The translations under genes and the position numbers were made by a program. From Gammaproteobacteria bacterium (GTDB lineage: Bacteria; Pseudomonadota; Gammaproteobacteria; UBA4575): 64,000 bases of DNA. The notes under the pieces are model-generated. The model saw only the letters and a program-made list of their open reading frames with translations, did not search any database and was not told the origin of the DNA. The DNA lies in the NCBI GenBank assembly GCA_965222615.1, contig CBDCUI010000007.1:128001-192000 (forward strand), in the 5' to 3' direction. How positions within the stretch are numbered: the first letter of the stretch is position 1; each line of letters opens with the position of its first letter. Below, in pieces: positions 3,543 to 8,871 of this stretch.

Positions 3543-3944
3543 TCAATTCTTGATAGCTGAAGTTGGAGTATAATTCTTTTCCCTATAGCGCCTGTATACC
3601 ATCTCAGTGGCAATATCAGAAATCAGTTTTTTTGGTTGCTGCCTGCAGCGTTTAATTATTAAATCCGTAAGAATATAAACGTCTTCACCCCAAGTAATAT
3701 CATACACATCATCAGAGGTGAAATTGACACCAGACACAAAACCTGAAAGCCATACAGCACCTAATTCTTTATAGGCAGCATCATTATCGATCTTAACTAC
3801 GAATTCACTACAAGGCATATTCCCCAAACCAACTGCTTCCCAAAAACCTCCACCATATACCTCAGCAAAAGCATAAGACGATTTAAAAACACATAGTAAA
3901 AATATAAATACCAATGTAATTTTTTTTAGTTTAGTCATATTCAC
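3543..3944 (-). CDS. Exported two-cysteine helical hypothetical protein (loosely HdeA/Rap1a-like pattern)
   Basis: Signal peptide; GxGxxxC...WLSGFVSG...CxxxP pattern. Confidence 0.5.
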   Translation of the reverse strand: MNMTKLKKITLVFIFLLCVFKSSYAFAEVYGGGFWEAVGLGNMPCSEFVVKIDNDAAYKELGAVWLSGFVSGVNFTSDDVYDITWGEDVYILTDLIIKRCRQQPKKLISDIATEMVYRRYREKNYTPTSAIKN

Positions 3945-5447: not shown

Positions 5448-5840
5448 TTAGCGTTTAGAGTATTGCTCTTTCTTACGTGCTTTTCGTAGACCCACTTTTT
5501 TGCGTTCTACTTCGCGCGCATCTCGTGTAAGAAAGCCATTTTGACGTAGTGGTAAACGTAGTTCATCGTTGTATTGCAACAATGCCCTAGCGATACCAAG
5601 CTGAATAGCCCCAGCCTGACCATTTGAGCCCCCACCCTTGACCTTTATATCAATGTCAAATGAATTCTCTAATTCAGATACTTCCAGAGGTTGGCGAATA
5701 ATCATGCGCGAAGTTACGCGACCAAAATAGTGGTCTAGTGTGCGCATATTAATCGTAATATTGCCTGAACCGGGGCGTAAGTAGACACGTGCCGTAGAGC
5801 TTTTTCTACGTCCCGTCCCATAAAATTGTTCTTGTGCCAT
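5448..5840 (-). CDS. rpsI: 30S ribosomal protein S9
   Basis: [13 protein letters not shown]...[12 protein letters not shown]...YSKR. Confidence 0.99.
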
Positions 5841-5845
5841 ATTCT

Positions 5846-6274
5846 TTAAAGTTCCAATACTTGAGGTTGTTGAGCAGCATGCTTGTGTTCTGGTCCCCTA
5901 TATACCTTCAATTTGCGAAACATCGCTCTACCTAAGGGGTTTTTAGGTAACATACCACGTACCGCGGTTTCTAATACACGTTCAGGATGTTTACTCAGCA
6001 TCTCGCGCAAGCTAGTGGATTTCAAATTGCCAATATAGCCGGTATGGTGATGATAGATTTTACCATCTAACTTATTACCTGTGACTCGCACCTTTTCTGC
6101 ATTAATTACCACAATACAGTCGCCAGTATCGACATGGGGGGTATAGATTGGTTTATGCTTGCCTTTTAAACGAATAGCGATTTCACTAGCTAGACGACCC
6201 AAAGTTTTGTCTGTAGCATCAATAAGATACCAATCTCTTTGCACTTCTTTAGGTTTAGCACTTACGGTCGTCAT
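5846..6274 (-). CDS. rplM: 50S ribosomal protein L13
   Basis: WYLIDA...LGRLA...[15 protein letters not shown]; start moved to ATG at 6274 (MTTVSAK) to match family length. Confidence 0.98.
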
Positions 6275-6320
6275 AGTGATTAATTCAGCGTTTGTTTTTG
6301 CACACATCGAAAGGCGCGAA

Positions 6321-6349
6321 ATAGTATCGAACTAATCACATGCTTACAA
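6321..6349 (-). promoter_or_regulatory. Sigma70 promoter of rplM-rpsI
   Basis: TTGTAA-17 bp-TACTAT followed by GC-rich discriminator TTCGCGCC. Confidence 0.65.
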
Positions 6350-6369
6350 GGAATTCACGGCCTCAAGAT

Positions 6370-6400
6370 AAAAAAAAGCGCGAATTTTGCAATCCGCGCT
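6370..6400 (-). terminator. Rho-independent terminator
   Basis: AGCGCGGAUU-GCAA-AAUUCGCGCU stem-loop followed by U run. Confidence 0.85.
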
Positions 6401-6460
6401 CAATAAATTATCTACCAGAAGTAGATGGAGGAGTTCTGAAAGTAAAGAACTATCAGAATA
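6370..6460 (-). ncRNA. Candidate ~90-nt base-pairing sRNA with exposed CUCCUCC
   Basis: Own TTGACA promoter, two hairpins flanking CUCCUCC, AU-rich linker, intrinsic terminator; no ORF. Confidence 0.6.
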
Positions 6461-6465
6461 TTCTT

Positions 6466-6494
6466 ATTCTCTAATATAATTGTATTATTGTCAA
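6466..6494 (-). promoter_or_regulatory. Candidate sigma70 promoter of the sRNA
   Basis: TTGACA-17 bp-GAGAAT; spacer contains ATAAT-N3-ATTAT inverted repeat. Confidence 0.5.
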
Positions 6495-6570: not shown

Positions 6571-6882
6571 TCAGATCTTTAATCGTTCGACAATTTTACC
6601 GTTAATCAAGTGCTTGTCGATGATTTCATCTAAATCACTCTCATCTTTATAGGTGTACCAAACTCCATCTGGGTAGACCACTGCAATCGGCCCTTCATCA
6701 CAACGGTCTAAGCAACCAGAGCGATTGATGCGTACTTGACCTTGTCCCGCGATCCCCAATTCCTTGGTCTTATTTTTGGCATAGTCTCGCAGCTCGCTTG
6801 CCCCGTGGTCTTGGCAACAACTCTTATCTTCGCGTTCATTCACGCATATAAAAAGATGGCGTTTGTAATAAGACATAAACAC
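6571..6882 (-). CDS. Thioredoxin-like [2Fe-2S] ferredoxin
   Basis: HLFICVNER...CC...SGCLDRCDEGPIAVVYPDGVWY. Confidence 0.92.
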   Translation of the reverse strand: MFMSYYKRHLFICVNEREDKSCCQDHGASELRDYAKNKTKELGIAGQGQVRINRSGCLDRCDEGPIAVVYPDGVWYTYKDESDLDEIIDKHLINGKIVERLKI

Positions 6883-6995: not shown

Positions 6996-8222
6996 ATGCC
7001 CATACCTAATATTACAAAACAAGATGTAATCAATGCTAGTGATCAATGCGTGATGTGCGGATTGTGTCTACCATACTGTCCAACATACCGCATTCAAAAA
7101 AATGAAGCAGAATCACCGCGCGGACGTATTGCACTAGTACGAGCTATATATGAGAACAACTTACAAGCTACACCAGTTTTAACAAATCATCTCGACTCTT
7201 GTTTAACTTGTATGACATGTGAGACTGTCTGCCCTGCCAATGTAGATTATGCAAAAATTATTGATGCAGGTCGAGAATTCACCTATAAACAACATAGTGT
7301 TTCAGATCGTTTTTATAAAGCATTTTTGTTGACGGTTCTAACTAATCCTAATGTTCGTAAATTTACTAAATTTATCCTCAGAATTTATCACGCACTTGGC
7401 TTCAATCACCTGCTAACAAAGATAAGTAACAACTCTTCACATGCATTGCTTCTGTTTAGATTAATTCCTAAACCTCAAAATCTAAACTTTGTTGAATCAT
7501 CAAAAAATGGGCTTGAAACACAGAGTCAAATTGTCCTGGTTAACACATGTGCCAGCGATTTGCTTTCTGATCAAACAAAAAATGCAGCAAGACATGTGCT
7601 AAATGCATTAAATTGCAAAGTAGTAGAGAAAACCCCCACACAATGTTGTGGTGCGCTGCACCAACACAATGGTGACTTAAAAAAAGCCCATCATTTAATA
7701 CAACAATTCGCAAGTTCCATTACTCATCAGGACTATGATGCATTAATTTCTCTGGCTACTGGGTGTGGAGTTCAATTAAACCGGCATCCAGATTTGATTA
7801 ACAAGCATATAGACATCAACGCCTTTGTATTAGACAAGCTTAAAAATAAGCAGCTAAACTTTAAACCTTTAGCAGAAGTTGTATTCATCCATAAGCCTTG
7901 CACTCAAGGTATTAAAAGTGACAATCAAATTGTAGAGAAATTGCTCAGCAATATTCCCGAACTAGAATTGAAATTTTTCCAAGACAATACGACCTGCTGT
8001 GGCGCCGGTGGCATTAACACGCTAACTCAAGCCAAACTTGCAAATAAAATAATCGGTGGGAAAATCAATGAAATAAAAGCCTCCGATGCTACATATTTAG
8101 TATCAAGCAATATCGGTTGTGTCCAACACTTTCAAGCAAACTTGTACCAAGAAGGCCGAAATAGTCGAAAAAACATTATTGTTTGCCACCCAATAACTCT
8201 ATTAGCACAGCAACTGCTATAA
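6996..8222 (+). CDS. glcF: Glycolate oxidase iron-sulfur subunit GlcF-like
   Basis: Two CxxCxxCxxxCP motifs, ESPRGRI, two CCG domains. Confidence 0.8.
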   Translation: MPIPNITKQDVINASDQCVMCGLCLPYCPTYRIQKNEAESPRGRIALVRAIYENNLQATPVLTNHLDSCLTCMTCETVCPANVDYAKIIDAGREFTYKQHSVSDRFYKAFLLTVLTNPNVRKFTKFILRIYHALGFNHLLTKISNNSSHALLLFRLIPKPQNLNFVESSKNGLETQSQIVLVNTCASDLLSDQTKNAARHVLNALNCKVVEKTPTQCCGALHQHNGDLKKAHHLIQQFASSITHQDYDALISLATGCGVQLNRHPDLINKHIDINAFVLDKLKNKQLNFKPLAEVVFIHKPCTQGIKSDNQIVEKLLSNIPELELKFFQDNTTCCGAGGINTLTQAKLANKIIGGKINEIKASDATYLVSSNIGCVQHFQANLYQEGRNSRKNIIVCHPITLLAQQLL

Positions 8223-8229
8223 TCAGCAC

Positions 8230-8871
8230 ATGCGTAATTATAATACTATCGATAATCTTCTAACCCATATAGATCGTGGTATTCGTACCATGTTTGTTAA
8301 ACCTGATTTTAAATCAAATCCATCGCCTGCAGATACGATCGATACAAAAGACTCACTAACTAAATCTGATCAACAACTTTCGGCACGCCTGATGCGTGTG
8401 AATCATGCCGGAGAAATTGCTGCTCAAGGGCTTTATCATGGTCAAGCACTTACTGCAAAAGATGAAAAAGTCAAACAACAAATGCAAAAATCTGCACAAG
8501 AAGAACAAGCCCATTTGGCTTGGTGTGAAAAACGTTTAATAGAATTGGATGATCATCCTAGTGCATTAACACCAGTCTGGTATTTAGGCTCTTATGCCAT
8601 TGGTGCTACAACTGGAATGTTAGGAGACAAATGGAGTTTAGGCTTTATTTCTGAAACTGAAAAACAAGTAGTGAAACATCTTGATAAACATCTATCACGA
8701 CTGCCCAAACAGGATAATAAAAGCAAAGAAATCTTATTAAAGATGCGTGAAGAAGAAATGATGCACGATAAAACTGCTCAGGCTGCCGGCGCATATGAAC
8801 TCCCCAAACCTGCCAAGCTATTAATGAAGGCTGTCTCAAAAGTAATGACTAAAACTGCTTATTGGGTTTGA
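8230..8871 (+). CDS. coq7: Demethoxyubiquinone hydroxylase Coq7
   Basis: MRVNHAGEIAAQGLYHGQ; ExxH di-iron motifs. Confidence 0.95.
   Translation: MRNYNTIDNLLTHIDRGIRTMFVKPDFKSNPSPADTIDTKDSLTKSDQQLSARLMRVNHAGEIAAQGLYHGQALTAKDEKVKQQMQKSAQEEQAHLAWCEKRLIELDDHPSALTPVWYLGSYAIGATTGMLGDKWSLGFISETEKQVVKHLDKHLSRLPKQDNKSKEILLKMREEEMMHDKTAQAAGAYELPKPAKLLMKAVSKVMTKTAYWV

Follow-up and report, generated by a model that had tools for sequence, protein, structure and literature searches.

The Rfam family RF02278 ('Betaproteobacteria toxic small RNA', Rfam cut-off 50 bits) comprises double-hairpin small RNAs (sRNAs), among them NcS27. It is compared here with an sRNA gene predicted on the minus strand of a 64-kb stretch of DNA from a Gammaproteobacteria bacterium (contig CBDCUI010000007.1, positions 128,001 to 192,000; G000:C7:128001-192000 in our numbering). 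The whole stretch of 64,000 nucleotides is called the window, and positions given without a prefix refer to it; the genome has 3.1 Mb and a G+C content of 39%. The element is located between a gene for a ferredoxin-like protein (fdx) and rplM. We consider it likely that it is an independently transcribed sRNA gene, the local and divergent version of a widespread sRNA built of a core and a terminator, and that its product is a repressor of the kind described for RF02278 and for S17 of Bordetella pertussis.

The following accounts of these systems are based on the accessible portions of the cited publications. In Burkholderia cenocepacia, ncS03, ncS05, NcS27 and ncS62 were described as double-hairpin RF02278 sRNAs, the unpaired CU-rich stretches of which are predicted to cover ribosome-binding sites (PMC5688073, PMC4603805, PMC10987360). 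The 92-nt form of NcS27 has additional sequence at its 5' end, which is removed to give a shorter form (PMC5688073). Cells grow more slowly when NcS27 is overexpressed, and the reverse is seen with an antisense directed at its CU-rich 5' part (PMC5688073, PMC10987360). S17 of B. pertussis is encoded between a glycosyltransferase gene and coq7 and is transcribed from a sigma-A promoter as a 190-nt precursor, which is cut by RNase E to the stable 67-nt S17S (preprint PMC11722255). S17 depends on Hfq and represses BP2158, a sigma-54 activator, via its 5' single-stranded Site 1; this control was restored by compensatory mutations (PMC11722255). S17 is reported to be homologous to RF02278; a stretch of 27 nt is said to show 100% conservation throughout Betaproteobacteria and to differ in 2 nt from a Burkholderia RF02278 member (PMC11722255).

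The window element resembles RF02278, the consensus of which is composed of UCUCCUCCA, a hairpin with a CU-rich loop and a terminator, in having a 5' single-stranded CUCCUCC, a short hairpin and a U-tailed terminator hairpin. The two differ in the hairpin loop, which reads UUCUG in the window and is not a second CU-rich site. Burkholderia carries three to five RF02278 paralogues according to the available part of PMC5688073, whereas the window element is single-copy and lies between fdx and rplM. With S17 it shares a sigma-70-type promoter of its own, an intrinsic terminator, a single-stranded CU-rich Site 1 and a nearby coq7 gene; S17 differs in its RNase E-cut precursor, in a Site 2 placed in a loop and in a level that follows the Bvg virulence switch, and in the accessible part of the preprint it is not described beside rplM (PMC11722255). 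The Neisseria NmsR RNAs and NgncR_162-163 (RF02877) are similar to the window element in their unpaired CU-rich stretches, which pair with ribosome-binding sites. They differ in gene context and in their TCA-cycle gene targets, as far as PMC5688073 could be consulted.

Architecture of the element

All parts of the element are on the minus strand. The sRNA promoter (6466-6494) consists of the -35 hexamer TTGACA (6494-6489), a 17-nt spacer and the -10 hexamer GAGAAT (6471-6466), and the site was also listed by a consensus scan. The primary transcript of approximately 90 nt is predicted to cover 6370-6460, with its start about 7 nt past the -10 hexamer at an invariant AUAUUC and its 3' end in the U run. 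It begins with a 5' hairpin, hereafter hairpin 1 (6434-6458; UUCUGA.AGU...ACU.UCAGAA), in which UUCUGA (6458-6453) pairs with UCAGAA (6439-6434). This is followed by the unpaired seed CUCCUCC (6427-6433), which is the complement of the Shine-Dalgarno sequence GGAGGAG, and by hairpin 2 (6410-6426; AUCUAC UUCUG GUAGAU), formed by AUCUAC (6426-6421) and GUAGAU (6415-6410). The A/U-rich linker AAUUUAUUG then leads into the stem of an intrinsic terminator (6370-6401), with 11 pairs and a GCAA loop in the stem (6401-6376) and 8 T/U ending at 6370. The original prediction, made from the sequence before this analysis, had named the promoter, the hairpins, the seed, the linker and the terminator, and its positions were accurate to the base.

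The 91-nt RNA folded into exactly the three named hairpins at -29.3 kcal/mol, and its shuffles had a mean of -12.9 kcal/mol (z = -6.28; 0 of 200 folded as well). The unpaired probability of CUCCUCC in the ensemble was 0.90. Promoter-like sites (6 observed vs 5.6 expected) and terminators (1 observed vs 1.1 expected) were not above chance in the scan. Since these counts are at the level of shuffled sequence, one sequence proves little, and the weight of the argument comes from conservation.

A direct repeat with a distance of 16 nt was noticed at 6460-6480 (minus strand); it is formed by the invariant ATATTA adjoining the -10 hexamer and by ATATTC, likewise invariant, at the predicted start of the transcript. 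A similar arrangement, TATTAGAAAAT-N4-CAUAU(G/U)CUGAU, recurs in distant families. The repeat might serve as the operator of some regulator, or it might reflect a conserved RNA 5' end.

A coding role was also considered and was rejected by inference. The sRNA strand has no ATG, and a 44-aa open reading frame (ORF) on the plus strand (6340-6474) overlaps compensatory stems and loops with 1-2-nt indels, which argues against coding.

Conservation in the order of the window

The order to which the window belongs consists of a single family, of which 56 genomes were searched with R1, a covariance model of the order's element. R1 matched the window element at 6370-6463 (G000:C7:134370-134463) and found exactly one copy each in 49 of the 56 genomes, so that the element is single-copy. 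A blastn search with a 141-nt region was positive in 16 of the 24 further family members, and 16 genomes from outside the family gave no hit. When one genome from each of 185,579 species was scanned for the pattern, 36 stretches were obtained, 34 of which had promoter, seed and terminator. All of these 34 true copies derive from metagenome-assembled genomes, which are labelled as Gammaproteobacteria, Pseudomonadota/Proteobacteria or Thiotrichales; two further stretches, labelled Clostridia and Saprospiraceae, were chance matches without the remaining features.

The fdx gene upstream and rplM downstream were present on the same strand in 51 of 51 order loci, which represent 38 distinct sequences. 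TTGAC, the 17-nt spacing, ATATTA, ATATTC and CUCCUCCA were invariant in all 38. The same was true of CUCCUCC, the mean unpaired probability of which was 0.87 over these sequences. The display of an anti-Shine-Dalgarno seed, as originally proposed, is upheld by this invariance together with the unpaired probability calculated for the window RNA.

Structure was examined on a MAFFT alignment that had not been fitted to structure. The named structure paired in 89.7% of the cells, a value reached by 0 of 500 shuffles; slid partners gave 34-43%. Compensatory changes, i.e. changes on both sides, occurred in seven of the nine counted pairs of the terminator and in three of nine pairs of hairpin 1, where 79.7% of the cells paired. 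Hairpin 1 was present in every lineage, with a lineage-specific sequence and register, and four of the five pairs of hairpin 2 never varied in the order. The covariation and the CUCCUCC conservation that the original prediction had suggested looking for between fdx and rplM in relatives were thus both found, the covariation chiefly in the terminator.

Among the seven order genomes without R1 match, one has a divergent copy, one a decayed copy and two have assembly gaps; three (G046, G058 and G013) stood outside this check. The contig of G009 ends inside rplM, and no rplM match was found in G054. The divergent copy is that of G005 (L176), the seed of which reads ACUCCUCUUG.

Altered copies were seen about 90-230 nt upstream of rplM in small-genome genera of the order (L176 of G005 and L177 of G018). 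In one of these genera (g5), promoter, hairpin 1 and terminator are kept around the changed seed ACUCCUCUUG, and hairpin 2 is gone. The copy at the same position in G016 (L175) has a degraded promoter and a degraded seed, suggesting decay in a reduced genome.

Homologues across the class and relation to known families

R1 also matched 38 of the 149 other sampled families of the class with 35-53 bits. All 39 primary distant hits were recognisable as this gene and had a CU-rich stretch, a hairpin and a terminator, and some departed from the canonical core. The distant copies often had the promoter layout TTGACA...TATTAGAAAAT, a 5' start CAUAU(G/U)CUGAU, a variable 5' hairpin, the nearly invariant core ACUCCUCCAUCCUCCUUUGGUGG and a GCGCGG-type terminator. 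The 22-nt core was almost unchanged in 35 different families.

For a reciprocal test, 35 of the 39 distant sequences, none of them from the window's order, supplied the cores for a second model, R2; L097, L109, L110 and L113 were left out as atypical or long. R2 gave a single hit in the 64-kb window, at 6370-6439 on the minus strand (40.4 bits, E = 5.7e-7, E-values of both models being rough due to quick calibration). This was also the single hit in the whole genome, and in the class sample 50 of 149 other families were matched. In the R2 alignment, CUCCUCC of the window element corresponds to 'Site 1' of the class-wide core. A phylum-wide sample gave matches in the same class only, except for one marginal match in another class (33 bits, with a rough E of 0.001).

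Downstream of the element, rplM was found on the same strand at 92-478 nt in 30 of the 39 distant loci, and fdx was upstream on the same strand in 20. A coq7 gene was present within 3 kb in 16 loci and a gene for a CCG/4Fe-4S protein in 14. Nine loci were without rplM in the fetched flank, two of which end too near a contig edge to tell.

The window's order departs from the canonical form in hairpin 2. The canonical hairpin CCAUC-CUCCUUU-GGUGG is rebuilt there as (A)UCUAC-loop-GUAG(AU), which frees Site 1 completely and removes the second CU-rich site, while the loops stay pyrimidine-rich. The mean unpaired probability of Site 1 was 0.87 in the window's order vs 0.46 in 28 canonical sequences. 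The window RNA is a single-seed variant of a known anti-Shine-Dalgarno sRNA family.

One distant locus, L109 (G179:C71:577-678, minus strand), reads CUACC-UCCUCCU-GGUAG and combines the CUAC/GUAG stem of the window's order with a CU-rich loop. It may be an intermediate between the two types of hairpin 2. In three distant genomes, a second and weaker copy (R1 21.5-27.9 bits) was found 100-200 nt upstream of the main copy, at L097:2846-2939 (minus), L113:2798-2877 (plus) and L118:2813-2887 (plus). In this respect the three loci resemble the Neisseria NmsR siblings.

An Rfam scan of the window yielded no family at its cut-off; the sub-threshold hits were L20_leader (27.2 bits, cut-off 58.7), nse_sRNA (26.2 bits), RF02278 (21.4 bits) and NmsRb (20.4 bits). 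The distant homologues scored 25-48.7 bits against RF02278 (32-42 bits in part of the scans), all under the cut-off. With the NmsR model (RF02877, cut-off 52), scores remained sub-threshold as well: the window reached 20.4 bits, and the highest score of a distant homologue was 35.8 bits. The description of the element as unannotated is therefore correct as regards Rfam; it does not extend to the element as such, which belongs to a recognisable and partly characterised family.

G204 was the sole genome among 151 sampled that exceeded the RF02278 cut-off (54.5 bits), and R2 matches the same place. In the family of G204 (f150), three of three fetched copies adjoin coq7 and are without rplM. Its order comprises families f150, f157, f160 and f192-f249, and 94 of its 151 genomes matched, often with two to three copies (this count includes one unpublished genome, G374). 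Judging from the name of the Rfam family and from the coq7 linkage, this order presumably corresponds to the former Betaproteobacteria. The class sample covers families f2-f150, of which only f150 belongs to G204's order; 49 of the 50 families hit by R2 are therefore outside that order.

Two further sequences were noticed outside the window, on contig C9 of the same genome. These are 77-nt copies, 88% alike, at G000:C9:468750-468826 and C9:472088-472164 (L136:250-326 and 3588-3664; minus strand), in which GACUCCUCCUGGAUUC is followed by a G+C-rich terminator. They flank a cluster of six minus-strand ORFs. Against RF02278 they reach 30.4 and 28 bits, the highest of the sub-threshold scores in this genome, and they may represent additional anti-Shine-Dalgarno sRNAs or the ends of a mobile unit.

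Predicted function and targets

Reading the window element as a repressor of the RF02278/S17 kind suggests the following mechanism. Transcription from the sigma-70-type promoter would yield an RNA of about 90 nt, its 3' end being set by the strong intrinsic terminator that directly precedes the rplM promoter. In this RNA, CUCCUCC would be displayed as a single strand flanked by two hairpins, and the A/U-rich linker and the U-tailed terminator would come after the second of them. Together with Hfq, the CU-rich seed would pair with GGAG-rich ribosome-binding sites of several mRNAs, block the entry of ribosomes and thereby lower translation of these mRNAs. Trimming at the 5' end would be possible, as reported for NcS27 and for S17, where S17L is cleaved to S17S.

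The genome contains hfq (102.7 bits) and three matches to RNase E/G. The element shows the build expected of an Hfq-dependent RNA, with 8 U after the terminator stem and the linker AAUUUAUUG before it. The Hfq-type architecture of the original prediction is hence borne out by the U tail, the A/U-rich linker and the hfq gene. The reading as a trans-acting repressor is founded on the hfq and RNase E/G genes, the seed, and the A/U-rich linker and U-tailed terminator that are typical of Hfq clients. The same role had been proposed originally, and it stands for the relatives, as RF02278 members and S17 are reported to act in this way (PMC11722255, as far as accessible). For the window element itself, we infer expression, Hfq binding, trans action and mRNA targets from sequence and relatedness.

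GGAGGAG occurs 127 times in the genome and precedes an ORF of at least 50 codons in 35 cases. Targets were ranked with a crude, over-called set of 5036 ORFs. The top predicted target encodes a 177-aa membrane protein without Pfam family (G000:C7:261596), with a 14-nt perfect match over the ribosome-binding site (dG -25.8 vs a mean of -7.3). Orthologues of this protein were present in 26 of 55 other order genomes, and the complementarity was lost even within the genus. For an ABC substrate-binding candidate no orthologue was detected in the 55 order genomes at E <= 1e-40, so that it is strain-specific. An OmpA/BON protein (C8:111049) was a further candidate.

Five identical ORFs of 325 codons were seen in the same genome, each after the same GGAGGAG ribosome-binding site, which is complementary to the sRNA seed. 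They are located outside or at the edge of the window (G000 C7:117645, C7:9445, C8:161251, C9:1005287 and C9:880221) and probably encode an insertion-sequence transposase.

Several observations weigh against the repressor reading. No conserved target was found among the candidates compared across the order genomes. The window element scores only 21.4 bits against RF02278 and is without the second CU-rich loop of that family. The equation of S17S with the core consensus rests on the RF02278 scores, the 2-nt difference and the coq7 linkage, S17 having been compared by its description. No RNA sequencing run is recorded for this sequence (three entries of one study, all contigs). Furthermore, a role purely in trans would not account for the near-constant place before rplM-rpsI.

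A broader reading would give this place a function. The element would then be an ancient sRNA that predates the split of the RF02278 order from dozens of gammaproteobacterial lineages, and it would compete in a general way for strong ribosome-binding sites. The RNA would be made in step with, or opposite to, ribosomal-protein synthesis, and the supply of ribosomes would be coupled to the choice of translated mRNAs, beyond a few transporter genes. We regard this extension as unlikely.

Alternatively, the RNA could be mainly a decoy that mimics the 3' tail of 16S rRNA; its global titration of a protein or of strong ribosome-binding sites would then keep pace with ribosome synthesis. Part of the canonical core is AUCCUCCUUU, which we take to resemble the 16S 3' tail, and the gene is fixed beside a ribosomal-protein operon. 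Overexpressed family members are moreover reported to inhibit growth (PMC5688073, accessible part). However, S17 has specific targets with compensatory base changes, as described in the available part of PMC11722255. The second and most 16S-like site is replaced in the window's order, and no protein partner is known. A decoy is therefore considered improbable.

Gene neighbourhood and transcription units

Downstream of the element, the ribosomal-protein operon (5448-6274, minus strand) consists of rplM (6274-5846; Pfam L13, 164.7 bits) and rpsI (5840-5448; Pfam S9, 165.7 bits). Its promoter (6313-6349, minus strand) is composed of TTGTAA (6349-6344), a 17-nt spacer, TACTAT (6326-6321) and the G+C-rich TTCGCGCC (6320-6313). 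G+C-rich discriminators are linked to stringent (ppGpp) control of ribosomal promoters. In the listed order loci, CTTGT(A/C)A...TA(C/G/T)TAT followed by a (T)TCGCGCC-like discriminator is kept below the terminator. The separate rplM promoter of the original prediction was thus confirmed and is conserved in these loci. Because of this conserved promoter below the terminator, the element is predicted to be its own transcription unit, which also sustains the earlier claim of an independent sRNA gene that is not the rplM leader.

The same evidence bears on the possibility that the element is a cis-acting leader or attenuator of rplM-rpsI, in which transcripts from the upstream promoter are either ended at the terminator (6401-6370) or read through it to adjust the output of ribosomal proteins, perhaps sensed by L13 or S9. 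This would account for the same-strand rplM in all 51 order loci and in 30 of the 39 distant ones, and the best sub-threshold Rfam hit in the window, L20_leader, is a ribosomal-protein leader (27.2 bits vs the cut-off of 58.7). Against it stands the rplM promoter, which is conserved, has a G+C-rich discriminator and lies below the terminator. Also, nine of the 39 distant copies were without rplM in the fetched flank (two of them near a contig end), and the f150 copies are beside coq7 without rplM. No L13-leader family was among the Rfam matches up to E = 10, and relatives are reported to act in trans (PMC11722255, accessible part). A cis-acting leader accordingly has a low probability.

Upstream of the element, fdx (6571-6876, minus strand, stop at 6571) encodes a 101-aa thioredoxin-like [2Fe-2S] ferredoxin-like protein, which reached 20.2 bits with Pfam PF01257 and stayed under the cut-off of 24.8. 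No convincing terminator was seen in the approximately 75 nt between the fdx stop (6571) and the sRNA promoter, and for this reason fdx transcripts probably also end at the terminator at 6401-6370. It could be argued from this that the element is only the 3' untranslated region and terminator of the ferredoxin-like gene and gives rise to no separate functional RNA. However, all 38 sequences have the invariant promoter with the same spacing, and the sequence from promoter to terminator is conserved beyond the need of a terminator. Promoter, seed and CUCCUCCA are all part of this conservation, which speaks against a doubt that the original prediction had raised itself, namely that nothing but a ferredoxin 3' untranslated region might be present. 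Furthermore, 19 of the 39 distant copies were without a same-strand fdx upstream in the fetched flank, and a 3'-end-derived sRNA with a promoter of its own would fit the repressor reading anyway. We consider a mere fdx 3' end very improbable.

Divergent from these genes, a gene for a CCG/4Fe-4S protein (6996-8222) and coq7 (8230-8871) are located on the plus strand (6996-8871 in total); coq7 is 1.7 kb from the window element. A Fur-controlled iron-sparing sRNA of the RyhB/PrrF kind, responsive to iron or Fe-S, would fit these Fe-S and di-iron neighbours (ferredoxin-like, CCG/4Fe-4S and COQ7 proteins), but it is hardly credible, as the ATAAT-N3-ATTAT repeat exists in the window promoter and in only 1 of 38 distinct relatives, the best match to a Fur-box consensus was 11/19 and thus at the background of random 121-nt windows here, and no RyhB, PrrF or similar family was found in the Rfam scan of the window. 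The metal or Fe-S response of the original prediction is therefore not supported.

Significance

The range of a base-pairing sRNA is usually limited to one genus or family. In the present case, coq7, fdx and rplM-rpsI recur as neighbours of the gene across a class. In the literature searched, as far as its texts were accessible, no description was found of the rplM linkage or of copies outside Betaproteobacteria; S17, NcS27 and the 'toxic' sRNAs were described only from that group. A search with the core sequence as a text string retrieved no paper from this literature. The spread of the family past its described range and its fixed place at rplM-rpsI thus appear not to be in print in the literature searched.

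If the element is an sRNA of the RF02278/S17 kind, most of the family would have been missed by Rfam. The experimental knowledge gained with Bordetella and Burkholderia would then be transferable to many uncultured lineages, and the order of the window would provide a naturally occurring single-seed form with which the purpose of the second site could be studied.

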